Below, one piece after another: positions 2,180-9,795 of a stretch of DNA of 64,000 nucleotides. This DNA comes from Candidatus Magasanikiibacteriota bacterium (GTDB taxonomy: Bacteria > Patescibacteriota > Patescibacteriia > Magasanikbacterales > GWA2-37-8): the NCBI GenBank assembly GCA_030650025.1, contig JAUSEN010000029.1, positions 287-64,286 of the forward strand. The letters run 5' to 3'. The notes beneath the pieces are model-generated. The model ran no database searches and had not been told where the DNA came from. It saw only the letters and a program-made list of their open reading frames with translations. A program made the position numbers and the translations under genes. Numbering within the stretch: the stretch's first letter is position 1; every line of letters begins with the position of its first letter.

Positions 2180-2208
2180 TTGACACCCATCTTCATCGTT
2201 GGTATATT
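2180..2208 (+). promoter_or_regulatory. Sigma-70-type promoter of hrcA: TTGACA, 17 bp spacer, TATATT
   Basis: TTGACA at 2180-2185, a 17-nt spacer (cccatcttcatcgttgg), then TATATT at 2203-2208. Confidence 0.6.
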
Positions 2209-2233
2209 ATCACTCATAAGTATAGAGTGATAA
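2207..2233 (+). promoter_or_regulatory. CIRCE-like HrcA operator: TTATCACTC, 9 nt spacer, GAGTGATAA
   Basis: A perfect 9-bp inverted repeat with a 9-nt spacer (ataagtata) overlaps the -10 and ends 2 nt before the hrcA ATG. It is a G-to-T variant of the canonical TTAGCACTC-N9-GAGTGCTAA. Confidence 0.7.
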
Positions 2234-2235
2234 CC

Positions 2236-2922
2236 ATGGAAACCAGGCAAGAACAATTACTCCAGCTGGTGATTGAAAACTATATTAAAACCGCCGAGCC
2301 GGTGGGTTCGCGTTTTTTAGTTACCGAAGCTGGTTTAGCGTGGAGCGAGGCCACGGTACGGAACGACCTGCGCGAACTCGAAGAGGCTGGTTATTTAACG
2401 CATCCGCACACTTCGGCCGGGCGCATCCCCACCACCAAAGGCTACCGCCATTATATTCAGAAACTTAATTTTTCCGGGCTGGAATTGCCCAAAAAAGAAT
2501 CCAGCGAATTGGAAAAAGCTTTTAAAGCCGAGGACGAATGGGAGGCGGCCTGCAAACAGCTCGCTAAAACAATGGTCGCGCTTTCTACTGAAACCGTGCT
2601 CCTCGCTTTTTCGTCCGAAAAAGTGTATTATACCGGCCTCGCGAGCTTGTTTCAAAAACCGGATTTTGGCGAGCAGAGCTTGGTGGTTGATGTGTCGGCT
2701 ATGTTTGACACGTTAGACGAAGTGTTGCCGGATTTTTTTAATATTGTTGCCGGTGAACCCAAGTATTTTTTGGGAGCGGAACACCCGTTTGGCGAAAAAC
2801 TAACGGTGCTCTCCACGCGTTTTGGGGAGGATGACCAGTCGCTTATCGCGCTCGTCGGCCCCCAGCGCATGGACTACAAGCACAATTGGGCTTTGCTAAA
2901 TAATATTTTGCAGTTTGTTTAG
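2236..2922 (+). CDS. hrcA: Heat-inducible transcription repressor HrcA (short form)
   Basis: METRQEQLLQLVIENYIKTAEPVGSRFLV is an HrcA-type N-terminal winged helix. The CIRCE operator lies immediately upstream and grpE/dnaK follow. The start is M25 of the tracked ORF. Confidence 0.75.
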   Translation: METRQEQLLQLVIENYIKTAEPVGSRFLVTEAGLAWSEATVRNDLRELEEAGYLTHPHTSAGRIPTTKGYRHYIQKLNFSGLELPKKESSELEKAFKAEDEWEAACKQLAKTMVALSTETVLLAFSSEKVYYTGLASLFQKPDFGEQSLVVDVSAMFDTLDEVLPDFFNIVAGEPKYFLGAEHPFGEKLTVLSTRFGEDDQSLIALVGPQRMDYKHNWALLNNILQFV

Positions 2923-2930
2923 AAATATTT

Positions 2931-3803
2931 ATGGACCAAGTGGAAAAAAAATACCCTATCATTGCCGTTGGCGCCCTCATTTATAATCAAGCGGGCAAGA
3001 TTCTTTTGGTGCGCGGGCCTAAGTTTGGCGATTTCTGGACAATCCCGGGCGGTAAAGTTGACCTTGGAGAAACTGTTGAACAGGCTCTGCGCCGCGAAAT
3101 TAAAGAAGAAATTAGCGTTGAAATTGGAAAGGTTGAGTTTGTGCAGTTTCAAGACGCGATCAATCCGCCCTCGTACCACGAACCCAAGCATTTTTTATTT
3201 ATAGACTTTCTCGCGGAATTAAAAAATGGCGAGCCGGCTGTTTCTAACGAAATTACGGAATTCATCTGGGTTGACGCCGCCACGGCGCGCCAAGATTTAA
3301 AAACTTCTCCGACTGTGGACAAATTGATTCAAGCCTATCTAGATAAAAGCAAACCAGCTGAAATTAAAAACGAAGATTATAAATTAAATTATCAGCGCGC
3401 CTTGGCGGATTATCAAAACTTAAAAAAAGAAACCGCCAGCCGCCGGGGGGAGTGGGCGCAATATTCCGAACAGATGATTCTGGAAGAATTTATTCCGGTG
3501 TATGATAATTTTAAAAAAGCCTATTGGCATAAACCCGAGATTGCGGGCGAGAGTGAGAAGCAATTTAAGCAGTGGGCGGACGGCATTGGTTTTATTCAAA
3601 AACAGTTTGGGGATATTTTAAAAGCGCACAATGTAATCGAAATAAAAACCGTGGGCGAAATGTTTGACCCTAAGTTTCACGAAACAGTTGGTGAAGACGC
3701 GGTGGAAGGCAAAACGCATGGCACAATCGTCAGAGAGGTGGAAGGAGGGTACACTATGGCTGGGCGGGTGATAAAAGTGGCGAAGGTGATTATTGCGAAA
3801 TGA
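2931..3803 (+). CDS. grpE: NUDIX hydrolase domain fused to nucleotide exchange factor GrpE
   Basis: Residues about 1-140 carry a Nudix box GGKVDLGETVEQALRREIKEEISV (GX5EX7REUXEEXGU). Residues about 150-290 form a GrpE coiled-coil (YQRALADYQNLKKE...IPVYDNFKKA) and a C-terminal beta domain (FDPKFHETVGED...GYTMAGRVIKVAKVII). It is a single uninterrupted frame. Confidence 0.7.
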   Translation: MDQVEKKYPIIAVGALIYNQAGKILLVRGPKFGDFWTIPGGKVDLGETVEQALRREIKEEISVEIGKVEFVQFQDAINPPSYHEPKHFLFIDFLAELKNGEPAVSNEITEFIWVDAATARQDLKTSPTVDKLIQAYLDKSKPAEIKNEDYKLNYQRALADYQNLKKETASRRGEWAQYSEQMILEEFIPVYDNFKKAYWHKPEIAGESEKQFKQWADGIGFIQKQFGDILKAHNVIEIKTVGEMFDPKFHETVGEDAVEGKTHGTIVREVEGGYTMAGRVIKVAKVIIAK

Positions 3804-3871: not shown

Positions 3872-4540
3872 ATGCAAACCACTAAATATTATCACGTTAT
3901 TATCGCGCTTTTTAGCGTTTGTTTGGTCGTATCCAATATCATTGCCGTAAAAATTGGCAGTTTCCTGGGTTATTTCTTGCCTGTGGCGGTTATTTTATTC
4001 CCATTCACCTATATCTTGGGCGATGTTTTAACCGAAGTGTATGGCTACGCGGCCGCTCGCCGCGCTATTTGGACCGGCTTTTTCTGCAATTTAGTGGCGG
4101 TCATCGCCATTTGGTTGAGCATCAAAATTGTACCCGCGCCGTTTTTTGCCAATCAGCCCGCTTTTGCCGCTATTTTAGGGTTCACCCCGCGCTTACTAGT
4201 GGCTTCGTTTTTAGCTTACTTAGTTGGTCAGTTCGCTAATTCATATATTCTATCAAAATTAAAAATCAGAACCCAGGGTAAGCATCTGTGGGCGCGAACG
4301 GTTGGTTCTACTGTGGTTGGTGAAGGTTTGGACAGCCTGGTGTTCATTGTCCTGGCTTTTAGCGGTGTCTTGCCAAGTGTGGCTATCCCGACTTTGGTTT
4401 TAACGCAGTGGATTTTTAAAAGCGCGTTTGAAGTGGTGGCCACGCCATTTACCTATATTGTCGTGAATTATTTAAAACAGGCCGAAGGGTTAGATGTTTA
4501 CGATCATCAAACCAATTTTAATCCGGTGAAAATTAATTAA
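3872..4540 (+). CDS. Queuosine precursor transporter (YhhQ/DUF165 family)
   Basis: Polytopic membrane protein with ...VSNIIAVKIG...FPFTYILGDVLTEVYGY...RRAIWTGF..., the conserved YhhQ-family core. It sits immediately upstream of queF. Confidence 0.6.
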   Translation: MQTTKYYHVIIALFSVCLVVSNIIAVKIGSFLGYFLPVAVILFPFTYILGDVLTEVYGYAAARRAIWTGFFCNLVAVIAIWLSIKIVPAPFFANQPAFAAILGFTPRLLVASFLAYLVGQFANSYILSKLKIRTQGKHLWARTVGSTVVGEGLDSLVFIVLAFSGVLPSVAIPTLVLTQWIFKSAFEVVATPFTYIVVNYLKQAEGLDVYDHQTNFNPVKIN

Positions 4541-4578
4541 CAATGAACAAACAACAATTAACAAGTTGTTAATTTCTT

Positions 4579-4977
4579 ATGCCCACATCCAAACAGGACC
4601 TCTCGCAACTTACTGAACTTGGCAATAAAAAAGCCAAGCCCGCTCGCACGCTCGAAGCGTTTCCCAATCATGCCCCGGGCGATTTAGAGGTCAGTTTGCA
4701 TTGCAGAGAATTTACCTGCCGCTGCCCCTTAACGAACCAGCCAGATTATGCCACTATTGACATTGTGTATGTGCCAGATAAATTTGTAGTGGAGAGTAAG
4801 TCCCTGAAGCTGTATTTAGAAACCTATCGAGAAGAAGGCGTTTTTCACGAACATCTGGCCGTGGATATTGGCAGGGATTTCGTGAAGTTTATTAAACCCA
4901 AAAGCGTGAGCGTAAAAGTTAATTTTAATACGCGCGGCGGGATCGCGATCAGCGCGGAGTGGAAGAGTAAAAAGTAA
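4579..4977 (+). CDS. queF: NADPH-dependent 7-cyano-7-deazaguanine reductase QueF (unimodular type)
   Basis: The catalytic Cys lies in CPLTNQPDYA. The QueF motif E(S/L)K(S/A)hK(L/Y)(Y/F/W) is present as ESKSLKLYL. The length is about 130 aa. Confidence 0.8.
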   Translation: MPTSKQDLSQLTELGNKKAKPARTLEAFPNHAPGDLEVSLHCREFTCRCPLTNQPDYATIDIVYVPDKFVVESKSLKLYLETYREEGVFHEHLAVDIGRDFVKFIKPKSVSVKVNFNTRGGIAISAEWKSKK

Positions 4978-4987
4978 GCATATTACT

Positions 4988-5662
4988 ATGTCAGAGAGTA
5001 ATTTTCTTGCGAGGCATTGGAAAAAACTAGCGGCTGGTGTAGCGGCGCTCGGTATTACGGCGGGGGCTGTTGACATGAGCCGTTCACGGCGAAGCGAGGC
5101 AGACAGTGGTGATGCACAGGGCGAAGTCCACAAACCGGAAGTCCCCGACCAGGCAGCGAGAGATATGAAGGCGTTAGATAATGCAGGGCGTCTTCAAAAT
5201 GAGGAACGAGCCCGCGAACGGGACCAAGAAAAGATTGTAAATGTAAAAGCTGCGATTGACGCCATGTTTGCGCAATCACCGGTGGATAATACTCCGCATT
5301 ACGAAACACAAGAATTAAGTATAGCCGAGTTGAGGGCCGAAGGTTTAGAAGATTTTGCAAAAGTTGTAAATGAAGTGCCGAGTTTAAAAATTTTTGACGA
5401 CAGCATAGATGGGCCTGCTGTAACTTATTTAGATGATCAAGGTGGGCGATTTAAATTAGCGAATATTATGGTCGAAGACGATGGCAGTTTTACTCTAGAT
5501 GGCGGAAAATTTAACCGGGGACTTGCTGCGCAAATAAATGTGGATAGTTTAGATGGATTAAAATCTGTTTTGGAGGGAGTAAAAAGAAATTTTGTAACTG
5601 GCAGTTTAGAAGACGAGCAATATGATAGGGAACAAGAAAAATTAAGGAAATTACGTCAATAA
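4988..5662 (+). CDS. Hypothetical membrane-anchored acidic protein (module A, partner of a NYN protein)
   Basis: N-terminal hydrophobic anchor KKLAAGVAALGITAGAV, then a D/E/K/R-rich low-complexity body. It is a divergent paralog of the 6321-6962 ORF (anchors are similar; ARDMKALD...EERARERDQE vs PKDMREADA...EDKARGERAGE). Confidence 0.45.
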   Translation: MSESNFLARHWKKLAAGVAALGITAGAVDMSRSRRSEADSGDAQGEVHKPEVPDQAARDMKALDNAGRLQNEERARERDQEKIVNVKAAIDAMFAQSPVDNTPHYETQELSIAELRAEGLEDFAKVVNEVPSLKIFDDSIDGPAVTYLDDQGGRFKLANIMVEDDGSFTLDGGKFNRGLAAQINVDSLDGLKSVLEGVKRNFVTGSLEDEQYDREQEKLRKLRQ

Positions 5663-5702
5663 TAGTAATGAGTATAAAAAAGTGGAGTGATAAGAAATAA
5701 TT

Positions 5703-6209
5703 ATGATAGCGAGCCGAAAAAACAATTACGCGTTTATTGATAGCCAAAATTTAAACTTAAGCGTTCGGTCGCTTGGGTGGAAGTTAAATTTTGGCAGTTT
5801 TCGCGTTTATTTGCGTGAAAAATATTCTATTCAGCAAGCGTACCTATTTATTGGTTATCTACCAGGAAATCAGCATCTTTATACCGCCTTACAGATGGCC
5901 GGCTATATTTGTGTTTTTAAACCAACCTTAGAGCTACCAGACGGTACTGTAAAAGGCAATGTTGATGCCGAGTTGGTCCTTCACACCATGATACAATACA
6001 ATAATTTTGATAAAGCCCTGCTCGTTTCCGGCGATGGTGATTTCTTTTGTCTGGCGCAGTATTTGTTGGAACAAGATAAGTTGCTTAAAGTGTTAATTCC
6101 TAACCAGGCGCGATATTCAGGGTTGTTAAAACGCTTAAGTACACAACAAAATAACGTTTTTGATTTCATAAGTGAACTCCGGGTAAGGCTGGAATATCGT
6201 CCAAAATGA
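5703..6209 (+). CDS. NYN-domain (PIN-like RNase, LabA/NYN family) protein, module A
   Basis: AFIDSQNLNLS...KGNVDAELVLHTM...KALLVSGDGDFFCLAQYL carries the NYN acidic catalytic residues in the canonical order. Confidence 0.6.
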   Translation: MIASRKNNYAFIDSQNLNLSVRSLGWKLNFGSFRVYLREKYSIQQAYLFIGYLPGNQHLYTALQMAGYICVFKPTLELPDGTVKGNVDAELVLHTMIQYNNFDKALLVSGDGDFFCLAQYLLEQDKLLKVLIPNQARYSGLLKRLSTQQNNVFDFISELRVRLEYRPK

Positions 6210-6320
6210 AAAAGGCTCCAAGCGGTACAAAACCCGCTAAGAACCTAGATCGTCGTGATAAAACTAGTATAACATACTATATTAATTTGTCAAGGCCGGG
6301 CGCGAATAAACCTCAAAACT

Positions 6321-6962
6321 ATGTTGGAAGGCAAGAAAAAATGGATTGCTGCGGCGGTCGGCCTGGCCGGTTTAGTTGGCGTTGAAGCCGGCAGACGAGC
6401 CGAAAAAAAGACCCCGCCAAGAGTAACGGACGAATCAGCCGATGTAGCGAAGCGTCCCAAAGATATGCGCGAAGCAGATGCCATTGCCGAGGCACGGCGA
6501 GTGTTGGATGAAGATAAGGCCAGAGGAGAAAGGGCTGGAGAAAATTACCAAGAAGACTATGAGCAATATTGGCTTGAGAATATGGAAGCGAAGTTTGATG
6601 TGGCACACGCAGAATATCCAATTTTGTATAAAATATTAGAAAAAAGTCCCTATGATTTTACCAAAGACACTCTTTTTGCTGACCCACCACCCAGGTTGTA
6701 TTTATGGAAAAAAGTTGGCGAATTTGAGGGCACGCCACGAGCACTGGAAGGAGTTTTTGTTTTACGAAATGCAGATGGCACCTTGGGGTATGAGATAATT
6801 CCTCAAAATAATCTTTACAAACCAGACGGTCAGCATGTGATATTCACCGCAGAGCAGCTTTTACAGGAGCTTCAAGCAAGAGAATCTGTTGAAAGTCAAC
6901 TAGTTGAAGATAGGGGTAGCACTGATGAGCGCGAGGCTAGCGAAGAAAATAAAGAAGAATAA
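6321..6962 (+). CDS. Hypothetical membrane-anchored acidic protein (module B, paralog of 4988-5662)
   Basis: N-terminal anchor KKKWIAAAVGLAGLVGVEAG, then a charged, E-rich body with an acidic C-terminal tail. It has the same architecture and partial sequence similarity to module A. Confidence 0.45.
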   Translation: MLEGKKKWIAAAVGLAGLVGVEAGRRAEKKTPPRVTDESADVAKRPKDMREADAIAEARRVLDEDKARGERAGENYQEDYEQYWLENMEAKFDVAHAEYPILYKILEKSPYDFTKDTLFADPPPRLYLWKKVGEFEGTPRALEGVFVLRNADGTLGYEIIPQNNLYKPDGQHVIFTAEQLLQELQARESVESQLVEDRGSTDEREASEENKEE

Positions 6963-7001
6963 AATTTTTTAGGCATTTTTTATAAATTTATTTACACACT
7001 A

Positions 7002-7127
7002 TGTCCAAAGTTCTCGGAATCGATCTCGGCACCGCTAACTCCTGCATGGCCATTATCGAAGGCGTTGTGGCAATTAATTATACACTTGACAACGTTATGG
7101 CGACGTGTTATATTAGTAGTAACTAAA
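7002..7127 (+). pseudogene. Relic of the dnaK 5' end (first 21 codons conserved, then unrelated sequence to a stop)
   Basis: atgtccaaagttctcggaatcgatctcggcaccgctaactcctgcatggccattatcgaaggc encodes [21 protein letters not shown], versus [21 protein letters not shown] for the resident DnaK at 7882. Many synonymous third-position differences are GC-richer. Similarity ends after codon 21 and a stop falls at 7125-7127. Confidence 0.7.
7086..7114 (+). promoter_or_regulatory. Sigma-70-type promoter: TTGACA, 17 bp spacer, TATATT, inside the dnaK relic and upstream of NYN gene B
   Basis: TTGACA at 7086-7091, a 17-nt spacer (acgttatggcgacgtgt), then TATATT at 7109-7114. Confidence 0.45.
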
Positions 7128-7170
7128 ACCACCCACCCTGCCCCGTAAGGGGCCCGGTGGGGTTTTATTT
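7127..7170 (+). terminator. GC-rich stem-loop with a GNRA tetraloop followed by a T-run (terminator-like or 5'-leader structure)
   Basis: GCCCC-GTAA-GGGGC sits at 7140-7153 with extended pairing (ccaccc.../...ggtggg), followed by ttttatttt at 7162-7170. It lies between the promoter at 7086 and the NYN-B ATG at 7184. Confidence 0.4.
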
Positions 7171-7183
7171 TAGAGCAAGTTTT

Positions 7184-7741
7184 ATGGCAGAAACAAAAAG
7201 GCGAGCGGTGGTATTATTTGACGGTAGCAATTTTTATTATAAAATGCGTGATCTTAAGATTGGTAATTTAAGCAATTTTGATTATCGTGGTTTATCCGAG
7301 TGGTTAGCGCGGGATAGGGAATTGGTAGCAGTTGGGTATTACATCGGAGTGGTGCGGGCGCAATTGAACGACGTAAAAGGGCAAAAATTACGTTGGGCGC
7401 AAAGAAATTTGTTTAATCGCTTGAATGCTCAAAAGGTTGATGTCCATAAAGGTTATTTAATGAAAAATGATGGCGTGTATCACGAGAAAGGCGTGGATGT
7501 TAAAATCGCGACGGATTTATTGGTGGGCGCTTATGAAAATTTGTATGACGACGCGATCGTAATTTCCTCGGATACGGATTTAATACCGGCGTTTAGCAAA
7601 GTAAAACAGCTTGGCAAGGGCGTAGAGTACATCGGCTTTGGTCATCAGCCCACCCTGGCGTTGCAGAAGTTTTCCACGATCTCACGCCTGTTAGTTTTGG
7701 ACGAGTTAAAGAAGTTTTGTACAGAAGAAAATAAAAAATGA
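7184..7741 (+). CDS. NYN-domain (PIN-like RNase) protein, module B
   Basis: MAETKRRAVVLFDGSNFYYK...KGVDVKIATDLLVGAY...DAIVISSDTDLIPAF is the NYN/LabA-like catalytic core. The start is the ATG at 7184. The GTG at 7157 used in the ORF track lies inside the hairpin. Confidence 0.6.
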   Translation: MAETKRRAVVLFDGSNFYYKMRDLKIGNLSNFDYRGLSEWLARDRELVAVGYYIGVVRAQLNDVKGQKLRWAQRNLFNRLNAQKVDVHKGYLMKNDGVYHEKGVDVKIATDLLVGAYENLYDDAIVISSDTDLIPAFSKVKQLGKGVEYIGFGHQPTLALQKFSTISRLLVLDELKKFCTEENKK

Positions 7742-7771: not shown

Positions 7772-7852
7772 ATGTCCAAAGTATTAGGCATTGACCTCGG
7801 CCCGCCTGCGCTCGCGAGAGCTACGGCGAGGCGAAGCACAACTAATTCTTAA
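7772..7852 (+). pseudogene. Second relic of the dnaK 5' end (10 codons conserved)
   Basis: atgtccaaagtattaggcattgacctcggc encodes [10 protein letters not shown], then diverges ([16 protein letters not shown]). It shares an identical 18-nt stretch, acacactatgtccaaagt, with relic 1 that includes 7 nt upstream of the ATG. Confidence 0.65.
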
Positions 7853-7881: not shown

Positions 7882-9795
7882 ATGTCTAAAGTTCTGGGTA
7901 TAGATTTGGGAACAACAAACTCCTGCATGGCCATTATTGAGGGTGGCACGCCCAAGGTGTTAGAAAATAAAGAAGGGGCGCGCACCACGCCCTCTATTGT
8001 CGCGATTTCAAAAGCCGGCGAGCGGTTGGTGGGGCTCTTGGCCAAGCGCCAGGCGGTAACTAATCCGGAAAATACGCTGTTTTCCATCAAGCGTTTAATC
8101 GGCCGCAAATGGGAAGATTCCGAAGTCCAGCGCGACCTTAAGCTGATGCCGTACAAAATCGTCAAAAGCGGGGAAGGCGTTAAAATTTCTATGGGTGGCA
8201 AAGAACACACTCCCGAAGAAATTTCGGCGATGATACTCGGCAAAATGAAAGCCGATGCCGAAGAGCGTTTGGGCGAACCAATTACCGATGCCGTAATTAC
8301 CGTGCCGGCGTATTTTGACGATGCCCAGCGCCAGGCCACCAAAAATGCCGGGGAAATCGCGGGTTTAAACGTACTGCGCATTATCAACGAACCGACCGCG
8401 GCCGCGCTGGCCTACGGGTTTGATAAAAAGAAAGACGAAAAAATTGTGGTCTACGATCTCGGGGGCGGTACGTTTGACGTATCGGTTTTGGAAGTAAGCG
8501 CGGATTCAGTTCAAGTTTTATCTACCAATGGCGACACCCACCTCGGCGGCGATGACTTTGACCAAATCTTAATTCGTTGGATAATTGATGAGTTTAAACG
8601 CCAAGAAGGGATTGATCTCGGCAATGATAAACTCTCCTTGCAACGCATTAAAGAAGCGGCTGAGAAAGCCAAAATAGAACTCTCCACCGCGCAAGAGAGT
8701 GAAATCAATCAGCCGTTTATCACTTCGGATGCTAACGGCCCCAAACACTTGGTGATGAAATTGACGCGCGCCAAGCTGGAAGAATTGGTGGGCGGACTGG
8801 TAGAAAAAACTTTTGGCCCGGTGAAACAAGCTTTGAGCGATGCCAAATTATCGTCTGCTGATATGAATGAAGTGGTAATGGTGGGCGGAATGACGCGTAT
8901 GCCCTTGGTACTCCAAAGCGTGGAAAAATTCTTCAATAAAAAACCAAACATTACCGTGAATCCGGACGAAGTGGTGGCGGTTGGCGCTGGAGTGCAGGGC
9001 GGCGTGTTAAAGGGCGATGTCAAAGACGTGCTCTTGCTGGACGTAACGCCGTTGTCTCTCGGCATTGAGACCATGGGCAGTGTGATGACCAAACTGATTG
9101 AGAAAAATACCACCATTCCAACTTCAAAATCTCAAGTATTCTCCACGGCCGCCGAAAATCAGCCGAGCGTGGAAATCCATGTTCTCCAAGGAGAAAGGCC
9201 CATGGCTCCGGATAACAAAACTCTCGGCCGGTTTATTCTGGACGGCATTCCGCCGGCCCCGCGCGGCGTGCCGCAAGTGGAAGTGAGTTTTGACATTGAC
9301 GCCAACGGCATCTTGAGTGTTAAGGCCAAAGACAAAGCCACCAGTAAAGAGCAGTCCATCCGCATTGAGGGCTCGAGCGGCCTCTCTAAAGAAGAAGTGG
9401 AGCGCATGAAAAAAGACGCCGAAGCCCATGCCGAAGAAGACAAGAAAAAGCAGGAGTTAATTGAGGCCAAGAATATCGCCGATACCATGGTGTATACTAC
9501 CGAAAAAATGATGAAAGACGTGGAGGAAAAGAAAATCACGTTGACTGATGATGAAAAGAAAAACGTTGCCGAGGGTCTGGTGTGGGTTAAAGACGTTAAA
9601 GACAAGGACGATTTAGAACTAATCAAAAAAGCTTCTGAAGCTTTGTCTAAATCCGCGCAAGCTGTTGGCATGAAGATGTACCAGGAAGAGCAGAAGAAGG
9701 GCCCAGCTAGCGGTGCCGCTGGCAGCCAGCCTGAAGGCGAAAAACCAAACGAAGGGCCAATTGAGGGTGAAGTGGTGGATGAGAAAAAATCTTAA
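7882..9795 (+). CDS. dnaK: Molecular chaperone DnaK (Hsp70)
   Basis: 637 aa with the full Hsp70 signatures [16 protein letters not shown] and [11 protein letters not shown], plus a C-terminal acidic tail. Confidence 0.95.

Follow-up and report, generated by a model that had tools for sequence, protein, structure and literature searches.

GrpE resets the Hsp70 chaperone DnaK; it is a parallel homodimer whose long helix serves as a thermosensor and whose C-terminal beta-domain wedges into the nucleotide-binding domain of DnaK in solved complexes. To our knowledge, few core proteins of bacteria and organelles are as uniform in architecture as GrpE, and we know of no exchange factor of this class that carries an enzyme. 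Here, we describe a GrpE fused in frame to an N-terminal Nudix hydrolase domain (herein referred to as the Nudix–GrpE fusion), encoded on a 64,000-nucleotide stretch of DNA from a Candidatus Magasanikiibacteriota bacterium (assembly GCA_030650025.1, contig JAUSEN010000029.1, positions 287 to 64,286 of the forward strand; herein referred to as the window, with coordinates counted from its first nucleotide unless another locus is named).

The canonical GrpE proteins of Escherichia coli (1DKG), Geobacillus kaustophilus (4ANI) and Mycobacterium tuberculosis (cryo-electron microscopy of DnaK–GrpE; PMC10803776) have the same long helix, four-helix bundle, beta-domain and RxxADxxN motif as the window protein, and the window gene lies in the same hrcA-grpE-dnaK arrangement under a CIRCE operator (controlling inverted repeat of chaperone expression) that accompanies canonical GrpE in many Gram-positive bacteria. 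However, canonical GrpE has a disordered N-terminal tail, whereas the window protein has a folded Nudix domain of 140 aa and a long helix that is shorter by some 4–5 turns. In E. coli, the tail binds the substrate-binding domain of DnaK via an IIM motif and promotes substrate release (PMC12915176). On the enzymatic side, the closest described counterparts are the minimal Nudix enzymes (the (d)NTPases MutT, NudG and NudI, and the diadenosine hexaphosphate [Ap6A] hydrolase Ndx1), which agree with the window Nudix domain in fold, in size, in the intact Nudix box and in the lack of any accessory domain, but share just 22–27% identity with it; the window domain is covalently attached to a co-chaperone and under predicted heat-shock control. 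Hydrolases of diadenosine tetraphosphate (Ap4A), including ApaH, YqeK and the Nudix enzymes RppH and NUDT2, are of interest because their loss gives heat sensitivity and their substrate binds DnaK, GroEL and ClpB (PMC10148737); ApaH and YqeK have other folds, and none of the four is fused to a chaperone component.

The preliminary description of this gene had called its architecture unusual for a core chaperone cofactor, and the literature is in keeping with that view: in the open-access literature, we found no paper on a Nudix–GrpE or HD–GrpE fusion, GrpE and Nudix being co-mentioned just in omics lists (which is no proof of absence), and the terms fusion, fused, Nudix and domain architecture are all absent from a review of GrpE-like exchange factors published in 2025. 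Database labels mostly read plain "GrpE", with a few entries labeled "nucleoside triphosphatase" or "ADP-ribose pyrophosphatase" and one Joint Genome Institute (JGI) entry labeled "GrpE/NADH pyrophosphatase NudC". Both domains have thus been annotated by machine but apparently never discussed, and public annotation as plain GrpE hides the dual nature of the protein. We would regard the fusion as a GrpE with a putative catalytic add-on and as no new kind of system.

Architecture and operon context of the Nudix–GrpE fusion

The fusion gene begins with ATG, its closest upstream in-frame stop codon lies at 2901–2903 and it contains neither an internal stop nor a shift, in agreement with the single uninterrupted frame of the preliminary description. 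Pfam assigns both domains above their gathering cut-offs, as that description had proposed to check: NUDIX (PF00293) spans aa 11–133 (E = 1.6e-21; 77.2 bits against a cut-off of 21.1) and GrpE (PF01025) spans aa 138–290 (E = 1e-35; 123.3 bits against 25.8; profile positions 18–165 of 165). The AlphaFold2 model of the protein has a mean predicted local distance difference test score (pLDDT) of 90.9. The protein is identical to the NCBI entry [quoted passage not shown] (MAG, metagenome-assembled genome), from a lineage that NCBI taxonomy places in the Patescibacteria group, inside the Parcubacteria group. The first methionine after the start comes no earlier than residue 182, which precludes translation of a separate GrpE from within the gene. 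The 64 kb window holds no second GrpE and no other Nudix box, and no assembly with two GrpE loci was found among the best 80 of 543 GrpE relatives, which is a weak test; the fusion appears to be the sole GrpE of the organism.

The complete Nudix box that had been noted within the first ~140 aa is present and reads G41-x5-E47-x7-R55-E56-I-x-E59-E60-x-S62-V63, which matches the canonical box used for comparison (GX5EX7REUXEEXGU) save for the replacement of the penultimate glycine by serine. Across 50 aligned homologs, G41, E47, R55 and E59 never vary, and conservation of E56 and E60 is at least 90%. The strict box (G-x5-E-x7-RE-x2-EE) is retained in 172 of the 189 fusions described in the next section (91%) and two more carry conservative variants; the remaining 15 without a strict box comprise a few N-terminal truncations, some single substitutions and six clearly degenerate boxes (P0127, P0144, P0152, P0163, P0174 and P0176). 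With a mean pairwise identity of 35% against 45%, the Nudix half evidently evolves faster than the GrpE half; the two identities are correlated (r = 0.5). Retention of the strict box and an invariant GrpE helix motif indicate that both halves are under selection. Foldseek searches of the PDB match the Nudix half to many Nudix structures with a probability of 1.00. Taken together, the domain is seemingly an active pyrophosphohydrolase.

A canonical GrpE was said to follow the Nudix domain, and this holds for the core and for the beta-domain strings that had been quoted, but not for the N-terminal end, where the tail and some of the long helix are missing. The helix-motif residues R156, A159, D160, Y161, N163 and L164 are invariant in the 50 homologs, the core aligns to 4ANI, 1DKG, 3A6M and human GrpEL1, and by homology all of the parts that contact the DnaK nucleotide-binding domain in solved complexes are present. 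Residue 144 of the window protein aligns with residue 72 of G. kaustophilus GrpE and residue 155 with residue 63 of E. coli GrpE; the first residue of the long helix, aa 147, corresponds to E. coli residue 55, and E. coli residues 1 to ~54, which form the disordered tail and the first helix turns, have no counterpart. Judged from the alignment and the model, the Nudix domain stands in place of the tail and of roughly the first 4–5 turns of the helix. At the same position, unfused relatives carry an acidic low-complexity tail (median 34 aa). The finding that GrpE tolerates a folded domain where its substrate-release tail would be is relevant to current models of the control of substrate release.

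The gene lies directly downstream of hrcA, as had been described, with a gap of 8 nt, and hrcA is directly 5' of grpE in every related locus where the contig extends that far. A sigma-70-type promoter precedes hrcA (table 1) and is the only plus-strand promoter-like site between 2100 and 4000. The CIRCE operator overlaps its -10 hexamer and stops 2 nt short of the hrcA ATG; the 64 kb window contains no other match, the number expected from shuffled sequences being 0, and no second CIRCE was found upstream of dnaK within 2 mismatches. CIRCE lies 5' of hrcA in 72 of 77 related loci, both fused and unfused. Because the promoter is under CIRCE, the fusion gene would be the second gene of an HrcA-autoregulated heat-shock operon.

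Recurrence of the fusion and of an HD analog

To place the fusion among its relatives, we searched a set of 5.8 billion proteins and considered the best 120 matches, all of which carry both PF01025 and PF00293 at identities down to ~40%. The Nudix–GrpE order recurs in at least 189 proteins, and every named source is a member of the Patescibacteria; the assemblies come from NCBI, JGI, the European Nucleotide Archive (ENA) and Logan, with some contigs of 0.4–0.96 Mb. When 1.84 billion cluster representatives (50% identity) were searched with a profile, ~65 of the top 150 were full-length fusions. The concern that a one-nucleotide indel, or a miscalled start, had merged two genes is answered by this recurrence: it would have to apply to 189 distinct proteins, down to 40% identity and on contigs up to 0.96 Mb, in which the linker varies in length among homologs while the reading frame is kept, and in the window gene neither a stop nor a usable internal start separates the two domains. 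We found no evidence supporting such an artifact and consider its probability negligible. The Nudix–GrpE fusion is genuine.

We surveyed the locus in one genome per Genome Taxonomy Database (GTDB) species, using the best 80 of 543 GrpE relatives together with the window (81 loci). The preliminary description had asked for a comparison of fused and separate genes in related genomes; 34 of the 81 loci are fused and 47 encode a plain GrpE (the window counted), and a separate Nudix gene between hrcA and grpE occurs at a single locus, L039. Fused loci are always found in an hrcA-grpE-dnaK context. Plain GrpE is typically 160–205 aa long, with no Nudix gene between hrcA and grpE. The locus record titles name Patescibacteria lineages of the Magasanik-, Falkow-, Nomura-, Uhr- and Paceibacteria type. 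The exceptions are co-assembly MAGs titled "uncultured Gammaproteobacteria bacterium" (CAYHBZ, CAYUWA, CAZHNI and others; loci L002, L004, L005, L009, L013 and others), which have typical Patescibacteria hrcA-grpE-dnaK loci; their labels look wrong, because they group with Magasanik- and Falkowbacteria on a DnaK tree.

This neighbor-joining tree of DnaK (71 tips) was used as a proxy for the species tree, and Fitch parsimony on it requires at least 13 changes between the fused and unfused states. A Falkowbacteria-like clade is nearly all fused, Magasanikbacteria-like clades mix fused and unfused species and one deep outlier (L078) is fused. Neighbor-joining trees of GrpE, DnaK and the Nudix domain are interleaved and partly congruent, and such single-protein trees have too little resolution to tell an old single fusion followed by many losses from recombinational spread between conserved flanks. 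Under either history, the pattern indicates that the Nudix module is accessory to GrpE function. Three proteins (P0201, P0237 and P0151) have Nudix-sized N-terminal regions of ~110–130 aa without a box, which by eye look like decayed Nudix remnants and suggest loss through decay; these proteins, and those with a degenerate box (P0174, P0176, P0144, P0152 and P0163), may be either pseudo-enzymes or intermediates toward loss.

An origin by fusion of two neighboring genes was considered and set aside: separate hrcA-nudix-grpE genes were sought in the 80 loci and found in none but L039. At this locus, a stand-alone Nudix open reading frame (ORF) of 145 aa (1071–1508) lies 23 nt 5' of a Nudix–GrpE ORF (1532–2371) in another frame. 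L039 may be a true split or a frameshifted Nudix–Nudix–GrpE, the latter being suggested by the 23-nt spacing, by the change of frame and by the existence of tandem Nudix–Nudix–GrpE proteins of ~450 aa (P0138, P0154 and P0156). In a neighbor-joining tree, the stand-alone domain of L039 groups with the Nudix domains of other lineages and not with its neighbor. A Nudix-only search for a stand-alone ortholog returned proteins of similar length at no more than 40% identity, but also missed the fused proteins and is hence an incomplete census; the best stand-alone match sits in an unrelated large-genome context.

A second type of enzyme domain occupies the same position in other Patescibacteria. HD–GrpE proteins (PF01966 and PF01025; P0186, P0268 and P0269, in three clusters with ~52% mutual identity) are encoded in the slot after hrcA and before dnaK or hsp20 in four independent samples, and one member is the NCBI Patescibacteria record HMB25860.1. 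The HD signature (H27, H56-D57, H99, D121) is intact in all three, and the nearest solved relatives of the domain are Lin1889 (3B57, E = 4.5e-10), Bacillus subtilis YpgQ (5DQV, E = 1.9e-9) and E. coli YedJ. For YpgQ, Mn-dependent pyrophosphohydrolase activity on (d)NTPs has been described (PMC8177086). HD–GrpE shares with the window fusion the operon slot, the attachment point and an intact catalytic motif, but its all-alpha HD fold is unrelated to the alpha/beta Nudix fold, and it is much rarer (three clusters against at least 189 proteins). By domain assignment, nucleotide phosphohydrolases of two structurally unrelated folds have become attached to grpE at one and the same point, a convergence which argues that tethering of nucleotide hydrolysis to the DnaK system has been selected in tiny, energy-poor, symbiotic cells.

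Candidate substrates and roles of the Nudix domain

Sequence and fold comparisons place the Nudix half within the superfamily at large. In phmmer searches of the PDB, the nearest solved proteins include a Burkholderia MutT/Nudix protein, the Nudix domains of Dcp2, MutT and NudI, all at E ~1e-8; Nudix enzymes of the Ap(n)A-hydrolase type (Ndx1, NUDT2, RppH/YgdP) reach just 1e-4 to 3e-5. NCBIfam scores are 50.4 bits for mutt (TIGR00586; cut-off 97.9), 42.2 for NudG (PRK10546; 156), 40.2 for NudC (PRK00241; 158) and 36.1 for NudI (PRK15472; 95). Among structures, the best Foldseek E-values belong to the catalytic cores of NudC and NUDT12, for which only the Nudix core aligns, with TM-scores of 0.37–0.40 (query-normalized) and 0.35–0.45 (target-normalized); the SQPWPFPxS motif of NudC and NUDT12 was not seen in the fusion sequence, and their extra zinc and N-terminal domains are absent. 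Target-normalized TM-scores are 0.85 for Thermus thermophilus Ndx1, 0.80 for MutT and 0.73–0.80 for NudI. A substrate call from sequence or fold was dropped, the phmmer, NCBIfam and Foldseek matches all being generic Nudix matches. Rules that relate a proline or tyrosine downstream of the box to specificity (here P79, 16 aa past the box), which we take to be too weak for this purpose, were not used. The sequence and fold matches, together with the YpgQ-like HD analog, make a nucleoside-polyphosphate pyrophosphohydrolase acting on (d)NTP-like or dinucleoside polyphosphate (Np(n)N)-like substrates the most economical guess for the Nudix half.

We hypothesize that the fusion is a bifunctional, HrcA-controlled GrpE with a tethered pyrophosphohydrolase that removes stress-related nucleotide species, a reading to which we would assign a probability of roughly 0.6. 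The C-terminal 145 residues form a complete GrpE core by homology and would be expected to carry out ordinary ADP-for-ATP exchange on DnaK, and the N-terminal 140 residues are a predicted catalytically competent, minimal pyrophosphohydrolase of the MutT/NudI/Ndx1 type. In the parallel GrpE homodimer, the two copies of the Nudix module would be direct neighbors at the coiled-coil tip. Co-transcription with hrcA from the CIRCE-controlled promoter would lead to co-induction by heat or proteotoxic stress, and a single fused gene under this promoter should supply hydrolase and exchange factor at 1:1, induced together. The task of the Nudix domain would most likely be the stress-coupled removal of non-canonical or damaged (d)NTPs, or of a dinucleoside polyphosphate such as Ap4A; GrpE would serve mainly as a stress-regulated, dimerizing carrier, the Nudix domain being accessory to exchange and no requirement for it. 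The sole detectable GrpE of many candidate-phyla bacteria would then carry a conserved, apparently active pyrophosphohydrolase.

Several observations weigh against this proposal. Every NCBIfam Nudix match is far below its curated cut-off, so that there is resemblance to MutT, NudG and NudI but not membership; the best matches range from NTPases and Ap(n)A hydrolases to enzymes that remove NAD caps or decap mRNA, and specificity cannot be read from sequence or fold. About 5–8% of the fusions keep a Nudix domain with a degenerate box, which makes a non-catalytic role possible in some lineages. Finally, a separate gene in the operon would suffice for co-regulation, yet none is found except at L039; this near-absence of separate Nudix genes hints that the physical tether itself is selected.

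The last point favors a direct coupling to the DnaK cycle, the possibility that the preliminary description had raised as a link between nucleotide or alarmone hydrolysis and exchange on DnaK. Here, the substrate of the hydrolase would itself be a ligand of DnaK, be it Ap4A or a different Np(n)N, an adenine nucleotide that has been damaged or the ADP that is released, and its hydrolysis would clear an inhibitor or make exchange irreversible and so keep the chaperone cycling under stress or low energy charge. Such a coupling is plausible, in that the catalytic residues are conserved, unrelated Nudix and YpgQ/YedJ-type HD folds occur at the same position of GrpE and the highest target-normalized TM-score belongs to an Ap6A hydrolase; moreover, Ap4A rises on heat shock and crosslinks to DnaK, GroEL and ClpB, its accumulation correlates with heat sensitivity and Nudix enzymes degrade it (PMC10148737). 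However, the attachment point of the Nudix domain is the N-terminal end of a ~53-residue helix, the coiled-coil tip, which by homology faces the substrate-binding domain of DnaK (PMC12915176) and, in comparison with solved complexes, lies tens of angstroms from the nucleotide cleft. Close relatives live with plain GrpE, the module having been repeatedly dispensable; the characterized relative of the HD analog is a (d)NTPase and no Ap4A hydrolase, and similarity of the YqeK type is weak and seen just for the non-fused P0293. We therefore regard direct coupling as possible but doubtful. In its most general form, the Hsp70 cycle of a large branch of the Patescibacteria would have gained a built-in means of clearing a stress nucleotide that occupies or inhibits DnaK (candidates being Ap4A or other Np(n)N, an oxidized adenine nucleotide and ADP), by a tethered Nudix domain or a convergent HD domain, a generalization that seems to us improbable on present evidence. 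If true, an enzyme would police the identity and quality of the nucleotides at the chaperone, this exchange factor would be the first to possess a catalytic activity, and the long-debated "alarmone" Ap4A would be tied to Hsp70 directly, at the molecular level. In any case, the fusion is a cheaply testable handle on the old question of whether stress nucleotides such as Ap4A act on Hsp70: the protein has just 290 aa, assays of soluble co-chaperones are routine and the natural fused, unfused and HD variants are ready controls.

Two further explanations assign the domain other work. It might be mainly structural or regulatory, as a folded substitute for the tail that tunes substrate release from DnaK or thermosensing, or as a nucleotide sensor for GrpE: it sits where tails that bind the substrate-binding domain normally are (PMC12915176), the six degenerate-box proteins named above keep the domain, and non-enzymatic add-ons (DUF1653 and a His/Cys knuckle) occur at the same position. 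We nevertheless consider this quite unlikely, as retention of the strict box in 91% of fusions at ~35% mean pairwise identity is hard to explain without selection on catalysis and the HD analog likewise keeps its catalytic motif. Very unlikely, in our estimate, is an RNA 5'-end pyrophosphohydrolase or decapping enzyme resembling RppH, NudC or Dcp2 that remodels mRNA stability during heat shock and is carried on GrpE. By sequence, the Nudix domains of Dcp2 belong to the best matches in the PDB; by fold, Foldseek gives its best E-values to NudC and NUDT12 and also matches BdRppH; and Np4A caps are reported to accumulate under stress. The similarity is, however, at the level of the generic Nudix fold (22–27% identity) and NTPases score equally, the additional domains of NudC are lacking and the HD analog points to free nucleotides. 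The tethered pyrophosphohydrolase acting on stress-related nucleotides is thus the reading that we prefer.

Neighboring genes and further modules at the GrpE N-terminus

Table 1. Coordinates of the Nudix–GrpE fusion, its regulatory sites and neighboring genes in the window, and of HD–GrpE genes at other loci
Feature	Position	Strand	Description
Sigma-70-type promoter	2180..2208	+	Predicted; TTGACA-17 nt-TATATT, TG extension; 11/12 consensus matches
CIRCE operator	2207..2233	+	Predicted HrcA site; TTATCACTC-N9-GAGTGATAA; perfect inverted repeat
hrcA	2236..2922	+	Heat-inducible repressor; 228 aa from ATG; PF01628 E = 4.6e-10; TIGR00331 E = 3.2e-44, below its cut-off
Nudix–GrpE fusion gene	2931..3803	+	290 aa, one frame, stop codon included
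Nudix hydrolase domain	2955..3350 (aa 9–140)	+	PF00293; minimal alpha/beta/alpha fold; AlphaFold2 pLDDT 92–98
Nudix box	3051..3119 (aa 41–63)	+	GKVDLGETVEQALRREIKEEISV; predicted catalytic/metal-binding E47, R55, E56, E59, E60, from homolog conservation
Short hinge, Nudix to GrpE helix	3351..3368 (aa 141–146)	+	pLDDT 66; only low-confidence block of the AlphaFold2 model
GrpE long helix	3369..3527 (aa 147–199)	+	Invariant RALADYxNL motif (R156–L164); shorter at its N-terminus than in E. coli and G. kaustophilus GrpE
GrpE second helix	3549..3626 (aa 207–232)	+	Part of four-helix bundle with end of long helix; W215, G218, Q225, F226 invariant
GrpE C-terminal beta-domain	3633..3797 (aa 235–289)	+	G273, V286 invariant; E236, E237, I238, T240, G242, F245 nearly so
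Vut_1/YhhQ-type transporter	3872–4540		Between grpE and dnaK
QueF	4579–4977		Between grpE and dnaK
ORF	4988–5662		No Pfam match; charged, Glu/Lys-rich, N-terminal hydrophobic segment
NYN-domain ORF	5703–6209		Between grpE and dnaK
ORF	6321–6962		No Pfam match; charged, Glu/Lys-rich, N-terminal hydrophobic segment
NYN-domain ORF	7157–7741		Between grpE and dnaK
dnaK	7882..9795	+	Client chaperone of GrpE; 637 aa; PF00012 E = 9e-254
HD–GrpE, locus L084	6001–6918		
HD–GrpE, locus L085	807–1724		
HD–GrpE, locus L087	1966–2904		

The HrcA of the window (region 2164–2922) is a short form, at 228 aa against ~340 aa for TIGR00331, which it matches in two stretches; the Pfam HrcA match covers profile positions 88–212 of 215. 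HrcA is ~226–245 aa long throughout the related loci. The dnaK gene lies 4 kb downstream of grpE, with six genes in between (3872–7741). As this spacing ranges from 25 nt to ~3.5 kb in related loci, the interval between grpE and dnaK is, from the comparison of loci, a variable insertion site. Some 110 nt 5' of the true dnaK start (7882), the window contains a segment (7772–7837) in which ATGTCCAAAGTATTAGGCATTGACCTCGGC encodes the ten N-terminal residues of DnaK; it differs from the real 5' end of dnaK by several synonymous codons, is followed by a GC-rich stretch (7802–7837) and looks like the remnant of another dnaK 5' end, introduced by recombination or insertion.

Other modules are also found at the N-terminus of GrpE. 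DUF1653 (PF07866) occurs there repeatedly, with or without a Nudix domain, in the orders DUF1653–Nudix–GrpE (P0083, P0087, P0093 and P0100), DUF1653–GrpE (P0329, P0331, P0349, P0366 and P0200) and Nudix–DUF1653–GrpE with a degenerate Nudix domain (P0176). A His/Cys knuckle (e.g., HKEKHGLFHHKCKDCEKY) directly precedes the long helix in 58 of the 189 fused GrpEs (P0064, P0072, P0099, P0109 and others; alignment columns ~240–255) and in 17 of 189 unfused Patescibacteria GrpEs (such as P0150, P0155 and P0357). The linker is longer in the fusions that bear the knuckle, which the window protein lacks; from its position, the knuckle might be an inter-subunit metal site of the GrpE dimer.

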